From contig CP070742.1 of assembly GCA_020348065.1 (NCBI GenBank), forward strand, positions 312,494-376,493: 64,000 nucleotides of DNA. The letters run 5' to 3'. The notes under the pieces are model-generated. The model made no database searches. It was not told the origin of the DNA and was given only the letters and a program-made list of their open reading frames with translations. Shown piece by piece: positions 16,863 through 45,412 of the stretch; position 1 is the stretch's first letter; the number at the start of each line of letters is the position of its first letter. Source of the DNA: Candidatus Zixiibacteriota bacterium. GTDB lineage: Bacteria > Zixibacteria > MSB-5A5 > UBA10806. The translations under genes and the position numbers were made by a program.

Positions 16863-17099
16863 TTTTTCTCCCGCATTTCATCACAAAAATTTTTAAAAAA
16901 TTATTAGACTTAAATTCTGGTTAAAATAAACCTCCTTCTGGATTAAATTTGCGGCCAACCATTATTCAAATTTTTTTCCTCATTTAACAAACCGAATCTC
17001 ATACAGAATTCGGAATGAAGCCCATATAAATATAGTAATTACCCTCCATAAGAGCAAGCATATTTTTCATTTTTTTATATTTTTTTATATTAAGTTTTA

Positions 17100-17481
17100 T
17101 CATTTTATCATTGTTATTTCCCGGGAAATTTCGTTACCGTCAACTAACAGCCTGCAGAAATAGATGCCGGTAAAGTATTTTCCGCCATCCCATTCTAAAT
17201 AATCGAATAAAAACCGGTATCCTGATTTCCATAACATATTGTTTCCAAATAGGTTCCCGGCAAATCACATACGTTCTGTCGTACACCGCATTATCATTAT
17301 TAAGATCATTGAAATTTATGTCCTCGTTATAAACAACAAGCCGAACCGTTGCCGTATCATCGTCTGTGCAGAAATTAATACCCTGCCGTATTGTGGCATA
17401 ATTATCCGGGATACTAATAACTGAAGCGGATATTCGGAATATGGGAAATAAAGATAGCAATATCGCTAATTGTCTAAACAT
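17100..17481 (-). pseudogene. Collapsed remnant of a T9SS cargo gene (signal peptide + first about 70 codons, frameshifted onto the last about 35 codons of a CTD)
   Basis: The 113-aa ORF starts with MFRQLAILLSLFPIFRISA SVISIPDNYATIRQGIN..DDDTATV..YNEDINF, a typical beta-helix cargo N-terminus. In a different frame, ending at stop 17100-17102, I read YRFLFDYLEWDGGKYFTGIYFCRLLVDGNEISREITMIK, a typical T9SS CTD end. Confidence 0.45.
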
Positions 17482-17829
17482 TAAAAAAAACCATGTGAGA
17501 ACAACAAAAGTCCCGGTACCGTAACTTCAAATCTTTCAATCAATTACCAGCCTCGAAGCACCTCACGCAAAGAGATCGCTCAAACAATATGCCGCTACTC
17601 TATATTAAATTACATTGTTATTTTTGATGATGTTTCATTTTAGCTATTTTTTTAAAAAATGACATCATTTATACTTTACTTTTATTGCCATCTTATTATT
17701 TAATTTATGGATATTTATTTTTAAACAAGATTTATAAGTCTCACAGCCTGTTAACCGTATCGCAGTCGTATTCCAATATATTCTATTTTTTTGCCGGCAT
17801 GAATCCGAAAATAATATTATAATTATATT

Positions 17830-18717
17830 TTATCTTCTTTTCATTTCTACAGTTAAGGGCGCCGCCTCTCCCATTTTATCCCGGCCCATATATAGCGTAA
17901 TATGCGGGAATGGTATTTCAATGTCCTGCTCATCGAACGCGATCTTCAAACGCCTGTTGAATTCACGTCCGATTCTCCATTGTTTGATAGGCTTGGTTTT
18001 GGTTCGGGCTTTAATAATTATGGCCGAATCCCCGAATTGATCCAGGCCGAGAACCTCGATTGGCTCCATAATATCATCAGAATATTCAGGATCATTTCGG
18101 AGACTCTCGTCTACCTTTTTTATAACCTCAACAACCTCGTCCACATTCTCCCGGTAAGCCACGCCGATATCGAATACGAACCTGGAATAATCCTGAGTCA
18201 TATTGGTTACGATATCAATCTGCCCGTTGCGGATGTAATGAACGTTGCCGGCGAGATCCCTCAGAACGGTCATACGCAGATTCACTTTTTCTACCAGTCC
18301 GCCCTTGCCGGCGGTCTGGACCACGTCCCCCACCCTTATCTGATCATCGATCAGGATGAAGAAACCGCTTATGATATCCTGTACCAGGTGCTGTGCTCCG
18401 AATCCTATGGCTACCCCGGCGATACCGGCCGCCGCAAGGATCGGTCCGATGGCGATTCCAAATTCGCCCAATATCATAACAAGGGCGATCCCCATAACGG
18501 TAGCGCTAAGAAGATAATTGAGGAGAGAGTTGAGCGTATCCAGCCGCTTCTTTGCCTCGGCTTCCTCAGCTTTTTTCTTAACGGTGGCGAGGATTTTGCC
18601 GGGGATAATTCTGACCAACTTTAAAGCGATTAATGTAATTATGACGATTACGACAATTCTCAGTCCGCTGGAAAGAAACCAATCTACAGCGCGATCCAAT
18701 AAAGCCTGAAATTCCAT
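17830..18717 (-). CDS. Small-conductance mechanosensitive channel (MscS family)
   Basis: 295 aa with N-terminal TM helices. The segment GFGAQHLVQDIISGFFILIDDQIRVGDVV is the MscS TM3/beta-domain hallmark. Confidence 0.85.
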   Translation of the reverse strand: MEFQALLDRAVDWFLSSGLRIVVIVIITLIALKLVRIIPGKILATVKKKAEEAEAKKRLDTLNSLLNYLLSATVMGIALVMILGEFGIAIGPILAAAGIAGVAIGFGAQHLVQDIISGFFILIDDQIRVGDVVQTAGKGGLVEKVNLRMTVLRDLAGNVHYIRNGQIDIVTNMTQDYSRFVFDIGVAYRENVDEVVEVIKKVDESLRNDPEYSDDIMEPIEVLGLDQFGDSAIIIKARTKTKPIKQWRIGREFNRRLKIAFDEQDIEIPFPHITLYMGRDKMGEAAPLTVEMKRR

Positions 18718-40398: not shown

Positions 40399-40427
40399 GC
40401 CTCGCGGCTAATTCCGCGGGATTTTTA
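40399..40427 (+). terminator. Rho-independent terminator candidate at the end of the sigma-54 operon
   Basis: GC-rich stem cgcgg/ccgcg (40403-40407/40414-40418), extendable with one bulge, followed by ATTTTTA (40421-40427). Confidence 0.45.
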
Positions 40428-40510
40428 TGTTTATACGATTACGCGAACTTAGAATTAGTGTGGACACTCTTACCTGTTAGAATCTATTTAGAGACATAGG
40501 AATAATAAAC

Positions 40511-40530
40511 CGGAGAGGCAAGGGTTCGAA
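40511..40530 (-). repeat. Distal direct repeat of the tRNA-Ser 3' end (att-like site)
   Basis: cggagaggcaagggttcgaa here against cggagaggcagggattcgaa at 45324-45343. 18/20 identical in the same orientation. Confidence 0.65.
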
Positions 40531-40675
40531 AACCGGCGATTTTTTAATTTCTTAGCTATTAGTAAATTACTTGGAATCCGTCGCCTGGTAAGGGATTACT
40601 TTATTCAAGTACAGGCAAGTTGGCTCAAGTACAAGCGAGTTTTATGATGTTTGCTGTTGGAAAATTGTTGGAAAA

Positions 40676-41038
40676 CTACAATTCTGCAGTTGGATTGTCT
40701 TTACCCAATATTTTAATATTTCCCTCCCCTCCACAGTATTTACTTATTAACTCTTTAAGTTCAACAAGAGCCTCATATATTTTCTTATTATCTTCCGGGA
40801 TTGGATTTTCTATAACTACGATAGCATTTTTTGTATTAGCGGTTAATTTAGTTCTGTCTCCTTCCCTCCAATTCCAACATCTACAAACAATCCCTTTATC
40901 GTCTTTGTATACTACTTCACCTTCCCATGGAGGATTATTCTCTTCTTCTCCTAATGGAATAAACTCTTCATTTCCTTTAGCAAACCCTATGGTCAAATCA
41001 CCTTCTATTGAATCCAGGTCTTCTCCTTCAATAGTCAA
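40676..41038 (-). pseudogene. B3/B4 (PheT-like tRNA-binding) domain protein, C-terminal half only
   Basis: 120-aa ORF starting at TTG, with a stop 2 codons upstream. The sequence GEVVYKDDKGIVCRCWNWREGDRTKLTANTKNAIVVIE matches my recollection of the COG3382/B3_4 family core. Full-length members are roughly twice as long. Confidence 0.5.
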
Positions 41039-41116: not shown

Positions 41117-42460
41117 CTAAATATCAATTTTTTGGGAAATATTCCTAAAATGGTGTTTTACAACTTCATAATTATAGTCCTGACAATGCCCAATATTTGC
41201 TTTACTTCTCTCGAATTTTATAATTTCCCACAAGTCGCTTAGGGCAAATATTTCACAATCCTTATTTTGTACCGAATATTTTATTATTTCTGGATCAGAT
41301 TTCAATAGTTGTTCGTTCAACTCTCTCTCTCTTTTTATTCTTTTTAGCCGAGCTTCATCGCTTTGCGATAACCCACTTTTCGATAATTTATCTAAGGAAT
41401 ATTCGATGTCAACCACAATATGAATTGCTATTATATTACTCACATTTACTTTTTTCAGGTCTTTACTTAATTCCACCACCCCTGCTAGACTATGTCCTGA
41501 TAGCAAAAGATCATACTTATAATTTTCCATTATATCTTCAAATAGAATCCCATATTCAGATTCATCAAATTCGCTATTTTTAGTATTAATGAATTTATTT
41601 TCTTTTTTAAGCCGCTCGAAATCAAATAAAGAAATATATCTATAATCAAGACAGTATGCTTCTCCCTTACGCTTATCCCGCGTTGTACATTTGGCTACGA
41701 TTTTCAGTTCGTTACATCTATTACTTAGGGCACTTATCAATTTACTCTTGCCGGAACCTGAGGGGCCAACCAAAATGAAGGCTATTCTACCTAAAGGAAT
41801 AGGAGAATATACAGGATTTATTGCGTGGTATGTTCTTATTGTAAATTCTTGCATCCATTTCAATCTAGAAATATATGCAAGGAATATACCAATAGTTGAA
41901 AATATAAATAATCCAGTTAGAGTAAAATAAAGCGCAGCGTTTTTTAAAAATAAATTTAAGCAATAAGGAAATACTAACATTAACAACAAGTTCGGTATAA
42001 TTAAGCCCCTGCAAAATCTCACGTCGTTTCTATGAATTTTAAGTTGATTAATAACATCAGCAGAATGAACATTTAAATGAGCTCTAATTAAACTAAATAA
42101 ATCAGCGATTTCATCCGACTGAATTTCAAGGCGATTCTTTAGATATCTTTTTATCAAAGGAAGATTAGAATATTGCTGGGATTTTATGAATTTATTCAAT
42201 GTATTTTTTCTAACACCAATTTCTATGGACTTAAATATTTTCATTGAAAGCGCATTATTGCTTGCGCCTAACGCATATGATATTGTAATCCCCAAAATGC
42301 CAATAATTATAAAAAGTTGTGTCGGGATATTATTAATAATCTTGTAAATATTGTCTATATTATTATAATTATAAACAACACATAAGACTATTAACGCTGA
42401 GCAAAATAGCAACAGTATCCCACTAAAAAAGTATTCGGCTATTAATGACTTTTTTTCCAA
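41117..42460 (-). CDS. Membrane-anchored (about 4 TM) guanylate-kinase-like P-loop protein
   Basis: 447 aa. Hydrophobic helices at about aa 6-30, 46-66, 153-172 and 175-197. Then ILVGPSGSGKSKLISAL (P-loop), CTTRDKRKGE (compare TTRxPRxGE of Gmk/PhnN) and LDYRYIS..F. Confidence 0.7.
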   Translation of the reverse strand: MEKKSLIAEYFFSGILLLFCSALIVLCVVYNYNNIDNIYKIINNIPTQLFIIIGILGITISYALGASNNALSMKIFKSIEIGVRKNTLNKFIKSQQYSNLPLIKRYLKNRLEIQSDEIADLFSLIRAHLNVHSADVINQLKIHRNDVRFCRGLIIPNLLLMLVFPYCLNLFLKNAALYFTLTGLFIFSTIGIFLAYISRLKWMQEFTIRTYHAINPVYSPIPLGRIAFILVGPSGSGKSKLISALSNRCNELKIVAKCTTRDKRKGEAYCLDYRYISLFDFERLKKENKFINTKNSEFDESEYGILFEDIMENYKYDLLLSGHSLAGVVELSKDLKKVNVSNIIAIHIVVDIEYSLDKLSKSGLSQSDEARLKRIKRERELNEQLLKSDPEIIKYSVQNKDCEIFALSDLWEIIKFERSKANIGHCQDYNYEVVKHHFRNISQKIDI

Positions 42461-42462
42461 CT

Positions 42463-43227
42463 CTATGTTAACTTGAATTCTTGGTTATCTTCAAGTATTA
42501 TTAGATTTTTTAACTTTAAATCATATAATTCATCCATAATTTCTAAGCGCCTTTTTGGTTTTAAATGAAATACATAAAGATTGCACGACCCAAGATTATT
42601 TTCCCTGACAATTGAATTCAATAGAGTGGGTGTTAAATGACCATCAATGTGAGCTTTTTTTAACTGTGAATTCGGAAGTGAGCATTCAATTATGATATCT
42701 TTCACCTTATTTATTCTGCAATAATTCCAAAATTCACAGCTTGGTCCTGTGTCTGAAGAATATCCAAAAACGACAGCCCCATTTTTAATTATATAAGAAT
42801 ATGTTGGGACCGTATGGCTAACTGGAACTGCCATAATATCATACTCAGAAAAATTATAATACTTTTTTTCCAAAATAGGAAAATAAATTAACGGCGCTGG
42901 ATTAAATTTATTAGTATTCGAATAATCAAACCAAATATTTGAATTAAATATATGACTCCTAAGAGCTGAAATAATCGCTTTAGGAGCAATTATTTGAATG
43001 GGAGTATCGTGATTCATGTCTCTTGAGGGAGGTAAAAATCCTAATTCTTTTATGTGATCCAAATGCATATGAGATATCAACACATATTTTATTTTTCTAC
43101 GTTCATTGATATCTAGCTGTGAGGCAACAGAACCAGCGTCGATCAGTAAATCATTGTTTATTAAAAAGCAAGACGAATATTTACCGGGATAAGGACTGCC
43201 GTTACACCCCAAAATTCTTAAATTCAT
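42463..43227 (-). CDS. MBL-fold metallo-hydrolase, phosphodiesterase-like (class II cNMP PDE / PhnP / YhfI-Apyc1-like)
   Basis: 254 aa. MNLRILGCNGS...CFLINNDLLIDAGS...YVLISHMHLDHIKELG (HxHxDH metal motif). The stop is 2 nt from the next start. Confidence 0.75.
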   Translation of the reverse strand: MNLRILGCNGSPYPGKYSSCFLINNDLLIDAGSVASQLDINERRKIKYVLISHMHLDHIKELGFLPPSRDMNHDTPIQIIAPKAIISALRSHIFNSNIWFDYSNTNKFNPAPLIYFPILEKKYYNFSEYDIMAVPVSHTVPTYSYIIKNGAVVFGYSSDTGPSCEFWNYCRINKVKDIIIECSLPNSQLKKAHIDGHLTPTLLNSIVRENNLGSCNLYVFHLKPKRRLEIMDELYDLKLKNLIILEDNQEFKLT

Positions 43228-43890
43228 TTATACCTCACTATAACTTATATATTCAACCTCAAAATTTACTATATTGAAAATCACTTTATAAATTGCTGTA
43301 AATGGAATATCTTTAATGTGTCTTCCAAATCCACCCCACAAAATAGCCCTAATGAGGCTACTGTGTGTTACGACTAGAGGATATTGAAATAAGATATTAC
43401 CGATATTATTTAAAATGAAGGAATTTAGTCGCAAAAATCCTTTTTTATAACTCTCTATACCATAATGCTCGCTTTCAAAGTTCCATTTATCATCACTCCT
43501 TTTACCATGTAATGATTTTAAAATTGTATTTGAATCAATTTCTTTTTTCGTTAATCAGTAAAGAACACCCTTAGCAACGTCGGATAATTCCAAATAGGTA
43601 ATAATATTTAATTTCATGATATTAGCAATTATTCTACTTGTTTCAATGCTTCTCGCATATGGAGAAGAATAAATATACCGAATATTTAAATGTTTTAATG
43701 TTTCCATTTTCTTTTTTACAGATTCTATTCCATTTTTACTCAATTTTGAAAGTTTAGAGATATGTATCGTTTTTGATTCGTGTTCATTTGTCTGGCCATG
43801 CCTCATAAAATGTAAAGATATTATTCTCAAAGCAATTAAAGAATTAAAAATATTTCGGTAAAAAAAATCTCGTATTATCTTTAATATCAT
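43228..43890 (-). pseudogene. Histidine phosphatase (phosphoglycerate-mutase-like) family gene interrupted by a single in-frame TGA
   Basis: Track ORFs 43555..43890 and 43228..43434 are in the same frame (663 nt = 221 codons), separated only by TGA at 43555-43557. Motifs are FMRHGQT, IYSSPYARSIETS and, after the stop, LVVTHSSLIRAIL. Confidence 0.65.
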
Positions 43891-43900
43891 TCATTACCGG

Positions 43901-43929
43901 AATATATCGGTTATTAATGTTCTTTGCAA
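43901..43929 (-). promoter_or_regulatory. Sigma-70-like promoter for the island cassette (TTGCAA-17 nt-TATATT)
   Basis: On the minus strand: TTGCAA (43929-43924), 17-nt spacer, TATATT (43906-43901). It ends 10 nt before ATG 43890, so the transcript would be near-leaderless unless a downstream start is used. Confidence 0.35.
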
Positions 43930-44090: not shown

Positions 44091-45224
44091 TTAAATCCCA
44101 ATCTTCTCAATAGACCTCTTCAAATGCTCCTCGGTCTGGTGAGTATAGATCATGGTGGTTTCTATGTCTTTATGTCCCAATATCTTGCCCATTGTAGCCA
44201 CATCCACACCATTCATCTGCATAATGCTATTGAAAGTATGTCTGAGGTTATGAACTCTTGTAAAATCCTCTAGACCTGCAGACTCAGCTACTTTTATCAA
44301 TGCACTCCTCAGTTGATCATTATCCAATTTTTTCCCTGAAATATCCTTGAATATATACCCTTCCTTATCTTTAAAGGATCTTAATAAATCCAAACAGGTT
44401 TCATTTAAATAAAATTCCCGGGCATAGGTCTTGGGCGACCAATCTGGTTTTTCCTGAATTTTTATTAATCCTGCTTCTAAGTCTATATCATTCCACGTTA
44501 AATTACATATCTCACCCGACCGAAGGCCAGAATTCAGAATAAACTTAAAGGCTTTGAAATAAACCAGAATTCGTTTATCCGATTTCGCCATCGATTTAGC
44601 TGTCTTCAAAAAGAGCGCGCATTCTTTTGGCGAAAGTATCTTTGTTTTATTTAAGATCTTTGGTTTGAGTTTTTTGACTTTTTTAGTAGGAATTTTATCA
44701 ATTAATTCATGATTCTGAGCCCAAATAAACGCCGTCCTCAAAACTCCAATCTCATAATTCACTGTCTGAGGTAAGGGTAATTTTTTATTTTTATGATTGC
44801 CATTTTTTACTCCGTCAGCCTCAATTTTTAACTCAATTGATTGGAGCCTTTGTTTTTGATAAGATTCAATATGTTCGGCTTTTATCTGTGAAAGATGTTT
44901 TATGCCTGGATGGAACTTTTTCAGAAACACCAGAAACGTGTTTAAAACAGCTAGATATCTTTTTACAGTATTAGAGGACTTATGCAATCTGACATAATCA
45001 GCGAAATTCTGAAAAAAATCATCTATGCGGATAGACCGAGAAGTAAATCCAAGTTTCTCAATTCTCTTTGATTCTTCCAAAGATTCAACCTGCTTTTTTA
45101 GCTTCCTGGCGTCAACAAGAGTGCCGGCCTTGAGCCATTTATGTCTTCCTTTCAAGGATACAACAACATAAAAGGTCTTTTTGCCGGTCTTATTTTTCTT
45201 GAATTGAATGCTCGCCATTGGCAA
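44091..45224 (-). CDS. int: Tyrosine-type site-specific integrase
   Basis: 377 aa. N-terminal SAM-like domain. Catalytic residues in GLRSGEICNL (Arg), HNLRHTF (His-x-x-Arg) and GHKDIETTMIYTH (His/Tyr). Adjacent to the tRNA-Ser 3' end. Confidence 0.9.
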   Translation of the reverse strand: MPMASIQFKKNKTGKKTFYVVVSLKGRHKWLKAGTLVDARKLKKQVESLEESKRIEKLGFTSRSIRIDDFFQNFADYVRLHKSSNTVKRYLAVLNTFLVFLKKFHPGIKHLSQIKAEHIESYQKQRLQSIELKIEADGVKNGNHKNKKLPLPQTVNYEIGVLRTAFIWAQNHELIDKIPTKKVKKLKPKILNKTKILSPKECALFLKTAKSMAKSDKRILVYFKAFKFILNSGLRSGEICNLTWNDIDLEAGLIKIQEKPDWSPKTYAREFYLNETCLDLLRSFKDKEGYIFKDISGKKLDNDQLRSALIKVAESAGLEDFTRVHNLRHTFNSIMQMNGVDVATMGKILGHKDIETTMIYTHQTEEHLKRSIEKIGI

Positions 45225-45323
45225 AATCCTGTTAGAAAATTATTAGAAATATAGAAAATCGGAGAACCAATTGTCAATAACTATTTTGATTTCAATAGGT
45301 TAATTTGTTAGAAAAAAATAATA

Positions 45324-45412
45324 CGGAGAGGCAGGGATTCGAACCCTGGAGGGGCTTTTGACCCCTACACACTTTCCAGGCGTGCTCCTTCGGCCAGCTC
45401 GGACACCTCTCC
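45324..45412 (-). tRNA. tRNA-Ser, anticodon GGA
   Basis: Hand-folded 89 nt. Acceptor stem GGAGAGG/CCTCTCC. Anticodon stem CACGC/GTGTG with loop CTGGAAA. Long variable arm GGGG..CCCC. T-arm CAGGG-TTCGAAT-CCCTG. CCA is not encoded. Confidence 0.9.

Follow-up and report, generated by a model that had tools for sequence, protein, structure and literature searches.

A small genomic island in the DNA analyzed here (64,000 nucleotides, hereafter the window) carries the decayed copy of what is well supported as a very rare, conserved, horizontally moving and so far undescribed operon. Its three genes, all on the minus strand, encode a His_Phos_1 phosphatase, an MBL hydrolase and a 4-TM protein with a C-terminal guanylate kinase (GK) fold. 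The best explanation, to which we give a probability of roughly 0.35, is that this GK-TM/hydrolase operon is a conflict or addiction module, similar to abortive infection or toxin-antitoxin systems, carried as cargo by integrative elements.

The sequence-only reading had placed these genes in a mobile, low-GC, tRNA-linked setting, and this was borne out. The island spans 4.8 kb, adjoins a tRNA-Ser gene and has a GC content of 0.316, compared with 0.474 for the remaining window. A tRNA gene, an adjacent integrase gene, a direct repeat of the tRNA 3' end and a deviant GC content are all present in the window, and the locus is a tRNA-integrated genomic island (Table 1). The flanking direct repeat is imperfect (40511-40532 and 45324-45345); the repeat search returned it as family D2, with 83% over 30 nt, and the alignment gave TGCCTCTCCG as its exact core. 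Synteny with the nearest Zixibacteria genomes breaks at position 40408. The candidate promoter proposed for the cassette did not stand out, with 26 promoter-like sites found and 25.7 expected, no more than chance.

Table 1. Coordinates in the window of the features of the tRNA-Ser island and the evidence for each.
Feature	Positions	Strand	Evidence
Imperfect second copy of the tRNA-Ser 3' end at the far island border	40511..40532	-	Repeat search and alignment
Truncated B3_4-domain ORF, 120 aa, profile positions 53-174 only	40676..41038	-	Pfam B3_4, 62.7 bits
GK-fold P-loop domain, aa 223-447 plus stop	41117..41794	-	Pfam, 42.6 bits; phrog_1815, 84 bits; AF2; Foldseek
N-terminal membrane module, aa 1-222, four hydrophobic helices, TTG start	41795..42460	-	Hydropathy; AF2; three-way alignment
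MBL-fold phosphodiesterase, 254 aa, class-II cNMP PDE/YhfI/Apyc1 kind	42463..43227	-	Pfam; metal ligands; AF2; Foldseek
His_Phos_1 (branch-1 histidine phosphatase) gene, interrupted by TGA	43228..43890	-	Translation; Pfam, 73 bits with the TGA repaired; homologue alignment
Island tyrosine recombinase/integrase, 377 aa	44091..45224	-	Pfam Phage_integrase, 101 bits; phrog_1 integrase, 189 bits
tRNA-Ser(GGA), integration target	45324..45412	-	ARAGORN; full-length Rfam tRNA match, 47.6 bits; intact

The stop and start coordinates confirmed the tight packing of the genes, with spacers of 0 nt and 2 nt. The TAA stop of the phosphatase gene (43228-43230) directly abuts the ATG of the MBL gene at 43227, and the TAG stop of the latter (42463-42465) lies 2 nt from the TTG start (42460) of the kinase-like gene, whose ORF ends at 41117. 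The three domain calls made without database searches were also right, with Pfam scores of 73 bits for His_Phos_1, 50.6 bits for PDEase_II (PF02112; gathering cut-off, 23.7) and 42.6 bits for Guanylate_kin (cut-off, 25.2).

The window copy is partly decayed. An in-frame TGA at 43555-43557 breaks the reading frame of the phosphatase, in place of a Gly codon (GGA/GGC) that is conserved in the homologues of loci L001 and L002; the RHG motif and THS histidine are still encoded. In the place where other lineages have a HAD phosphatase gene, the window has the truncated B3_4 ORF, probably a remnant, and a tblastn search detected no HAD homologue in the whole window. Because of the nonsense codon and the missing HAD gene, the window copy is possibly only partly functional. 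These two lesions, together with the imperfect flanking repeats, would also fit a dead remnant without current function, whatever intact versions do. We regard this as a real possibility but on balance doubtful, as the MBL and TM-GK genes are full-length with all catalytic and binding motifs intact. With a single disabling change, the phosphatase gene was either damaged recently or is one that the cassette can do without, as L087/L088 and L091 use other phosphatases. The presence of a phosphatase pseudogene and the loss of the HAD gene next to intact MBL and TM-GK genes argue against these phosphatases being essential antidotes.

The idea that the genes belong together held when other genomes were considered. 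Homologues co-localize in the same order (HisPhos-MBL-TMGK) in L001 and L002/L003, two other metagenomic lineages where a HAD gene comes fourth, and they are rearranged in L091. Identities of L001 and L002 to the window are 38 and 31% for HisPhos, 52 and 47% for MBL, and 44 and 40% for TM-GK, respectively, L001 and L002 being nearer to each other than to the window in all three genes. Start and stop codons overlap or lie 0-2 nt apart in the conserved unit. GC content differs strongly among the three lineages (30, 36 and 54%), and the recombinase next to the cassette in L002, a locus that also has a wHTH gene and a HerA/VirB4/CedD-like ATPase, is unrelated to the window integrase. The cassette is thus cargo on different mobile backbones.

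The partners of the GK-like protein vary among loci. In L091, the gene for the GK-like protein P0112 is followed by an overlapping Inositol_P phosphatase gene and then by an MBL gene (P0007) of the same clade; the C-terminal 4-TM module of P0112 is unrelated to the window TM module (hhalign probability 1.5%). P0086 and the GK-TM protein of L087 each precede a conserved HD protein, and in L087/L088 an HD hydrolase is the sole phosphohydrolase partner of GK-TM, without MBL. An MBL phosphodiesterase belongs to the hydrolase set in four lineages. The recurring set, given this variation, is a GK-like-TM protein with at least one phosphohydrolase. It is well supported that the phosphomonoesterases are interchangeable, be they His_Phos and HAD, an enzyme of the inositol-monophosphatase family (L091) or HD alone (L087/L088).

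The cassette had no match in species-representative genomes, viral contigs, phages or plasmids. An exhaustive HMMER search placed the TM module in two 50%-identity clusters only, and no further protein with the window TM module was found among 1.84 billion representatives. Neither the island nor L001, L002, L087, L088 and L091 encode a cyclase, CD-NTase or TIR domain, and no recognizable defense island was seen among the loci, whose contigs are short (3-26 kb) and offer a thin context. Such extreme rarity is unusual for a successful defense system, and it limits the general importance of the cassette.

The MBL protein, which also matched Lactamase_B_2, has a complete binuclear metal site (H53, H55, D57, H58, H138, D159, H197 and H221 are all conserved) and an AF2 model with a pLDDT of 96.6. 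Foldseek TMq values were 0.83 for yeast PDE1, 0.79 for YhfI, 0.72 for Apyc1 and 0.66 for PhnP. A clade signature, ELGFLP / W[FY]D[YL], the second part of which replaces WPDF of relatives, was present in 4 of 78 MBL homologues, and all four adjoin a GK-like-TM gene. Relatives without the signature, including the closest ones in sequence (30-38%), lie beside accD-folC, a Crp-like gene or a class III cyclase gene, and a GK-like neighbor was absent from all of 80 further MBL loci. No phage homologue of the MBL protein exceeded 28% coverage. It is well supported that the ELGFLP clade branches from housekeeping class-II cNMP phosphodiesterases and is dedicated to the cassette.

This family membership brings up an anti-defense role, in which an Apyc1-like MBL would destroy host cyclic-nucleotide immune signals (cCMP/cUMP of Pycsar, cAMP/cGMP) while the kinase-like protein and the phosphatases would recycle or remove NMPs. 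The MBL protein has precomputed PF23023 matches besides its structural likeness to Apyc1, and integrative elements carry the cassette. Enzymes of the Apyc1 family cleave all four 3',5'-cNMPs and most are bacterial housekeeping enzymes, but phages have co-opted the class-II PDE/Apyc1 family several times (PMC11724313, PMC9117128). We nevertheless consider this role distinctly unlikely: Apyc1 acts alone, which leaves unexplained why the MBL is strictly coupled to a membrane-bound GK-like partner, and the MBL-free pairs of GK-TM and HD are not accounted for either; the cassette occurs on no phage or plasmid searched; and the Apyc1 profile of NCBIfam (NF041851, cyc_nuc_deg_phdiest) gave 28.3 bits against a cut-off of 400.

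The top NCBIfam match of the MBL protein was RNase Z (54.7 bits, N-terminal half), and the phosphatase domain of T4 Pnkp has the HAD fold, as does the fourth protein of the cassette in other lineages. Both would suit RNA end-healing, whereby the MBL would open a 2',3'-cyclic phosphate, the phosphatases remove the 3'-phosphate and the kinase act on the 5'-OH in the repair of tRNA cut by an anticodon nuclease. The chemistry resembles that of Pnkp of T4 and Clostridium, which combines kinase and phosphatase/cyclic phosphodiesterase (PMC2190708). We hold this to be very improbable, as there is no ligase, the kinase has a GK fold with an NMP-type clamp unlike that of Pnkp/Clp1, the MBL is without the RNase Z exosite and nearest to cNMP PDEs, and RNA repair gives no reason for a membrane anchor.

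In the kinase-like protein, the Guanylate_kin domain (residues 228-403) lies behind four hydrophobic segments. The public gene call, a 375-aa protein starting at Met73, omits two of the TM helices. The TTG start is real: two homologues have N-termini (MELKSLISEYF and MDLRSLITEYF) that line up with it, and the 2-nt spacer recurs in L002. The membrane-module helices were modeled by AF2 with pLDDT values of 50-79; a helical insert of basic character separates TM2 from TM3, and the three-way alignment revealed invariant polar motifs, LGA(S/G)NNA in TM2 and HRND(V/I)RFCRG preceding TM3. The GK domain was modeled with a pLDDT above 90 and had a Foldseek TM-score of about 0.8 (target-normalised) to true GKs, with a TIGR03263 score of 56.3 bits, below the equivalog cut-off of 160.45.

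The description of this protein as guanylate-kinase-like holds for the fold, the P-loop and the phosphate clamp, but the residues that read guanine have been replaced. The kept residues (G232-K238-S239, T259, T260, R261, R264, E267, Y273 and Y303) fall in columns at least 90% conserved among 70 GK homologues. The guanine-reading Glu (53 of the 70 GKs) is replaced by Lys294 following a two-residue insert, the Ser/Thr column (Thr in 34) by Ile305, and the Asp/Glu (41) by Ser324 with an inserted His323. One lid Arg (62 of 70) is Ser/His and a second (59 of 70) is Lys358, lid indels making the alignment less certain here; the lid is shortened in the L001/L002 GK-like proteins. The signature KxSD[FY]D and [ST]xHS is common to P0086, P0088, P0095 and P0113, and P0230 has the KxSD[FY]D part. 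With its guanine readers and one lid arginine lost, the protein is not Gmk, and because one conserved lid arginine is missing and another is Lys, kinase activity is uncertain.

A conserved clamp would also be expected of a module for metabolism or salvage that works on a small phosphoester at the membrane, where the kinase-like protein would add phosphate onto phosphate and the TM module would position it. GK-fold enzymes such as Gmk and PhnN make diphosphates from phosphomonoesters, Lys294 and His323 could bind a second anionic group, and every partner is a phosphohydrolase of a metabolic superfamily. Versions of this idea include a PhnP/PhnN-like route from ribose cyclic phosphate through the bisphosphate to the diphosphate, phosphate scavenging, and phosphorylation of a lipid-linked monophosphate; taken jointly, they seem unlikely to us. 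The PhnP and PhnN matches are weak (33.3 bits against a cut-off of 272, and 17.3-20.3 bits against 153-156, respectively), and C-P lyase genes are absent nearby. Moreover, two unrelated TM modules speak against a conserved membrane-substrate site, a kinase and phosphatases in one operon would make a futile cycle, and the patchy, mobile and extremely rare distribution suits accessory conflict genes better.

Under the conflict-module reading that we favor, the MBL would open a cyclic phosphodiester, of which a 3',5'-cyclic nucleotide is the likeliest, and the GK-like domain would bind the resulting 5'-phosphomonoester as ligand or substrate. The ligand would not be GMP, since the base pocket is rebuilt (Lys294, His323-Ser324 insert, Ile305) while the Thr-Thr-Arg/Arg/Tyr/Tyr clamp is kept. 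The GK-like domain would phosphorylate this ligand or be gated by it and would relay its state to the membrane module as the output, and the phosphatases and phosphodiesterase would hold ligand or product low, as an off-switch or enzymatic antidote. We thereby infer a nucleotide-gated or nucleotide-converting membrane effector checked by hydrolases. A point against this reading is that the TM modules might do no more than tether the protein next to a membrane-bound substrate. The role in defense, anti-defense or abortive infection first suggested from the DNA letters remains plausible. More specifically, GK-like-TM proteins could form a new class of nucleotide-gated membrane effectors whose GK fold acts as sensor, or sensor-kinase, for a non-guanine NMP arising during phage or plasmid attack (an NMP derived from a cNMP, or dNMPs from degraded host DNA), the MBL and swappable phosphatases setting the trigger threshold of an abortive-infection or addiction system without its own synthase; this version is tentative and rather unlikely.

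We know of no GK fold serving as sensor in nucleotide-signaling defense. If our reading is true, guanylate kinase would be a new sensor fold in bacterial nucleotide-based conflict systems, a membrane effector with built-in ligand-clearing hydrolases and without signal synthase would be a new wiring plan, and housekeeping class-II/Apyc1 phosphodiesterases would have been recruited a second, independent time into mobile-element function. Regardless of function, the loci provide a gene set that is well defined and open to testing, a clade of GK-fold proteins whose acceptor pocket has been rebuilt, and a membrane domain without relatives among 1.8 billion representative proteins.

Comparison with known systems agrees with the initial impression that no named system has this composition. 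No system model of PADLOC-DB 2.0 matched: TM-GK hit only generic P-loop models with E no better than 4e-4, and MBL, His_Phos and HAD had no match. The MBL shares its fold and the complete HxHxDH...H...D...H...H metal site with class-II cNMP PDEs (YhfI, yeast PDE1, Apyc1) and is structurally closest to PDE1 and YhfI, but it forms a small separate clade found solely beside GK-like-TM genes and, unlike Apyc1, is not phage-borne. With Gmk and the phage GK-like proteins (phrog_1815), the kinase-like protein shares the full GK fold, the GxxGxGK(S/T) P-loop and the TTR/Arg/Glu/Tyr/Tyr phosphate-binding residues; it differs from Gmk by the replaced guanine readers, the lost lid Arg and the fused 4-TM module.

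The sequence-only reading had drawn an analogy with PhnP/PhnN, where an MBL phosphodiesterase acts just ahead of a GK-fold kinase on a phosphoester. The analogy is weak in view of the sub-cut-off scores, a structural match poorer for PhnP than for PDE1/YhfI, and the context, with no phn genes in the island, L001, L002 or L091; the cassette kinase is also membrane-bound. Membership of PhnP/PhnN fails on the family scores and the absent phn operon.

Fusion of a nucleotide-binding domain to unrelated membrane modules is a pattern of nucleotide-signaling defense sensor-effectors. The membrane effectors of Pycsar, CBASS and type III CRISPR resemble the cassette in having a soluble nucleotide-binding domain on interchangeable TM modules, a mobile context and, with ring nucleases, co-encoded enzymes able to degrade the nucleotide ligand; as the cassette has no signal synthase and no defense HMM match, the resemblance is one of architecture only. 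Enzymatic toxin-antitoxin pairs include toxSAS alarmone synthetases with HD-domain small alarmone hydrolase antitoxins, as well as zeta toxin kinases. Compared with these, the cassette transferase has another fold, is membrane-anchored and is accompanied by several hydrolases instead of one. By analogy, the cassette would share with them a mobile setting and a phosphotransferase translationally coupled to a hydrolase that possibly undoes its product, and the HD partners in L087 and L088 are also reminiscent of toxSAS.

The phosphatase, the MBL-fold hydrolase and the kinase-like gene lie together on an island with a GC content of 31.6%, against 47.4% in the rest of the window. The kinase-like protein, hereafter TM-GK, combines an N-terminal membrane module with a C-terminal guanylate-kinase (GK)-like domain. 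An imperfect repeat of the tRNA 3' end marks both borders of the island (40511-40532 and 45324-45345), and the two copies share an exact TGCCTCTCCG core. Just beyond this repeat, both borders carry a second imperfect direct repeat of 30 nt with 77% identity (40473-40502 and 45228-45257), which may represent recombinase arm sites or chance similarity in AT-rich DNA. The B3_4-domain ORF (35% GC) covers profile positions 53-174 only and occupies the place of a HAD phosphatase gene in other lineages. A further low-GC patch (34%) was seen at 17001-18000; its sole content is a 113-aa ORF, flanked by a large repeat-rich surface protein gene and a mechanosensitive-channel-like gene.

Table. Coordinates of the island genes and of related gene sets in metagenomic loci
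Feature	Locus	Coordinates	Strand	Remarks
tRNA-Ser(GGA)	window	45324-45412	-	intact, 47.6 bits
Tyrosine integrase, 377 aa	window	44091-45224	-	Phage_integrase, 101 bits
Branch-1 histidine phosphatase	window	43228-43890	-	in-frame TGA inside
MBL-fold hydrolase, 254 aa	window	42463-43227	-	class-II cAMP phosphodiesterase Pfam match
TM-GK, 447 aa	window	41117-42460	-	TTG start
B3_4-domain ORF, 120 aa	window	40676-41038	-	C-terminal two thirds of B3_4 domain only
GK-like-TM + HD two-gene module	L087	1274-3158		HD gene 4 nt downstream; DUF6414 gene upstream
GK-like-TM + HD two-gene module	L088	478-2350		HD gene overlapping; DUF559/MTES_1575 gene downstream
Rearranged cassette variant	L091	2804-6607		P0112 (GK-like-TM), overlapping inositol-monophosphatase-family phosphatase, then P0007 (MBL)

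The host belongs to the Zixibacteria, and the proteins of the flanking genes are 96-97% identical to those of Candidatus Zixiibacteriota genomes. The window is collinear with the closest of these over 9.7 kb, at 91% and 84% nucleotide identity, up to about 40408, where collinearity breaks off abruptly about 100 nt short of the island border. From there to the window end, no counterpart was found in the flanks of these genomes, and because synteny ends at this point the comparison is uninformative about an empty site.

The tight packing described in the sequence-only reading was correct: the phosphatase stop abuts the ATG of the MBL gene, whose own stop lies 2 nt from the TTG start of TM-GK. 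This start at 42460 is backed by the N-termini of two aligned homologs and by an identical 2-nt spacer in the metagenomic locus L002. The public gene model takes Met73 as its first residue; the resulting protein of 375 aa misses the first two membrane helices. The promoter proposed at 43901-43929 as a sign of a single transcription unit was rejected, since promoter-like sites occur at chance density (26, against 25.7 in shuffled sequence). In neither the window nor L002 was a riboswitch or other RNA element detected upstream of the cassette.

The MBL protein scores 50.6 bits against the Pfam family of class-II cAMP phosphodiesterases, above the cut-off, and retains all metal ligands. Its predicted fold (pLDDT 96.6) matches yeast PDE1 (TMq 0.83), Bacillus subtilis YhfI (0.79), Apyc1 (0.72) and PhnP (0.66). 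Members of this family cleave all four 3',5'-cNMPs and are mostly bacterial housekeeping enzymes that have been co-opted by phages (PMC11724313, PMC9117128). Relatives at 30-38% identity carry cNMP phosphodiesterase annotations and have accD-folC, a Crp-like regulator or a class III cyclase as neighbors. In L089 (1616-4344), a housekeeping-type relative, P0012, is encoded two genes away from a class III nucleotide cyclase fused to Fer2, which supports the view that the parent family has a role involving cyclic nucleotides. A distinct motif, H.H.DH.[KR]ELGFLP together with W[FY]D[YL] in place of WPDF, was found in 4 of 78 MBL homologs (the window protein, P0004, P0005 and P0007), and a GK-like-TM gene adjoins all four. 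When the alignment of this clade was used for a further scan, the 80 additional MBL loci were all of the housekeeping type, and GK-like or TM matches were absent from every one of them.

The membrane part of TM-GK comprises four hydrophobic helices and includes a basic helical insert; it is followed by a complete guanylate-kinase fold (pLDDT >90; target-normalized TM-score of ~0.8 to solved GKs). Foldseek searches with the whole model returned GKs only, leaving the membrane part, modeled with middling confidence, unmatched. We compared the GK-like domain column by column with 70 GK-domain homologs. Both the P-loop and the phosphate-clamp residues T259, T260, R261, R264, E267, Y273 and Y303 are kept. 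The guanine-reading Glu is replaced by Lys294, preceded by a two-residue insert, the Ser/Thr of the guanine pocket by Ile305, and its Asp/Glu by Ser324, next to an inserted His323. One lid arginine is gone and another is Lys358. These replacements are identical in all three orthologs. With its guanine-reading residues replaced, TM-GK is not a guanylate kinase; the residues predict a protein of the GK fold with a phosphomonoester as its ligand.

Among 5.8 billion proteins searched, one other full-length TM-GK was found, P0002, with 39% identity. When 1.84 billion representatives were searched exhaustively with HMMER, the membrane module occurred in only two clusters, those of the window protein and of P0002, and the remaining matches covered the GK domain only, with at most 79 bits. 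In locus L001, P0002 is encoded in the order phosphatase-MBL-TMGK-HAD, and the same order is found in L002/L003 around the closest MBL protein, P0004 (52% identity). Homologs of the cassette genes thus co-localize elsewhere, so that the sequence-only reading is not refuted by the absence of co-localization that it had named as a refuting outcome. The L002 cassette is flanked on one side by a divergent tyrosine recombinase, a Csa3-like wHTH gene and a coiled-coil gene (L002 5-2532) and on the other by a HerA/VirB4/CedD/DndH-like ATPase (L002 6387-8105); the element may be integrative or conjugative. GC contents of the three cassette lineages are 30, 36 and 54%. The gene order is shared, all three genes show the same relatedness (L001 and L002 closest, the window more distant), and the recombinases of the window and L002 are unrelated. 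These comparisons therefore indicate that the cassette genes are inherited together and travel as cargo of different mobile backbones.

The phosphatase carries RHG and THS motifs and a conserved KDKWN...YG(I/V)ESY insert. The in-frame TGA lies at 43555-43557 on the minus strand, where both homologs encode glycine (GGC and GGA). It represents a nonsense mutation, or else perhaps an error of the assembly. TGA does not serve as the stop codon in any of the four island genes. Acquisition from a code-25 donor, in which TGA encodes glycine, was considered and rejected: the homologs use GGC or GGA, and this TGA is the only one among about 1,300 island codons, which makes a simple GGA-to-TGA change far more likely. 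The HAD gene, 48% identical between L001 and L002, is absent throughout the window. Together with the TGA, this loss shows that the window copy is eroding. That the copy no longer works at all, judged separately from any reading of its function, seems somewhat unlikely.

The pocket signature KxSD[FY]D and [ST]xHS was also found in other proteins among the best GK-domain matches. In these proteins, namely P0086, P0112, P0229 and the one encoded in L087, a different membrane module of 3-4 helices follows an N-terminal GK-like domain. No homology between the two kinds of module was detectable (hhalign probability 1.5%), and we therefore treat them as unrelated. The HD-domain hydrolases paired with these proteins in L087 and L088 are conserved (~190 aa, 52% identical between the loci). 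A truncated integrase-like ORF adjoins the L091 set on the opposite strand. Phosphomonoesterase partners of GK-like-TM proteins belong to four different superfamilies. Given the partners seen in L087, L088, L091 and the cassette loci, a GK-like-TM protein with a phosphohydrolase is a recurring set, into which the special MBL clade has been recruited in four lineages.

In the proposed mechanism, the MBL enzyme would open a cyclic nucleotide to the 5'-monophosphate, the GK-like domain would bind or phosphorylate this product, the membrane module would act as the output, and the hydrolases would hold ligand or product low. We tentatively favor a conflict or addiction module (probability of about 0.35), because one soluble nucleotide-binding domain is fused to two unrelated membrane modules and because the ligand-degrading enzymes are interchangeable, the elements mobile and the distribution patchy. 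Several observations argue against it: the cassette has no signal synthase, no defence-island context and no PADLOC HMM matches, a lid arginine is missing in the GK-like domain, and the window MBL and TM-GK persist without two of the phosphatases. Among the rival readings, a metabolic or salvage role is considered unlikely, erasure of a defence signal (anti-defence) slightly more so, and RNA end healing highly improbable.

Scanning by pattern and by tblastn with the TM-GK alignment recovered no further copy from species-representative genomes, viral contigs or JGI metagenome contigs. In phages and plasmids, the tblastn matches were confined to ordinary gmk or phage GK sequences and to short stretches of the MBL N-terminus. 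Literature searches on the domain combination returned nothing relevant. The earlier statement that no named system has this composition agrees with the lack of a PADLOC match for the proteins, and within the libraries and literature searched there is no described defence, anti-defence or metabolic system of this kind. The cassette is an undescribed gene set built from known parts, clean and testable; it carries less weight because it is extremely rare, its context is thin and the window copy is damaged.

Compared with known systems, the MBL protein qualifies at the domain level as a class-II cNMP phosphodiesterase but falls short of the curated thresholds for both Apyc1 and PhnP. TM-GK shares the GK fold with Gmk and PhnN, yet neither its residues nor its scores qualify it as either enzyme. 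The PhnP/PhnN analogy drawn initially was not borne out, as the two proteins score under the curated cut-offs for PhnN and PhnP, and PhnP gave the lowest value among the structural matches reported here. The architecture and context of the GK-like-TM proteins differ from the pattern of an enzyme anchored beside a fixed membrane substrate and fit that of sensor-effector proteins.
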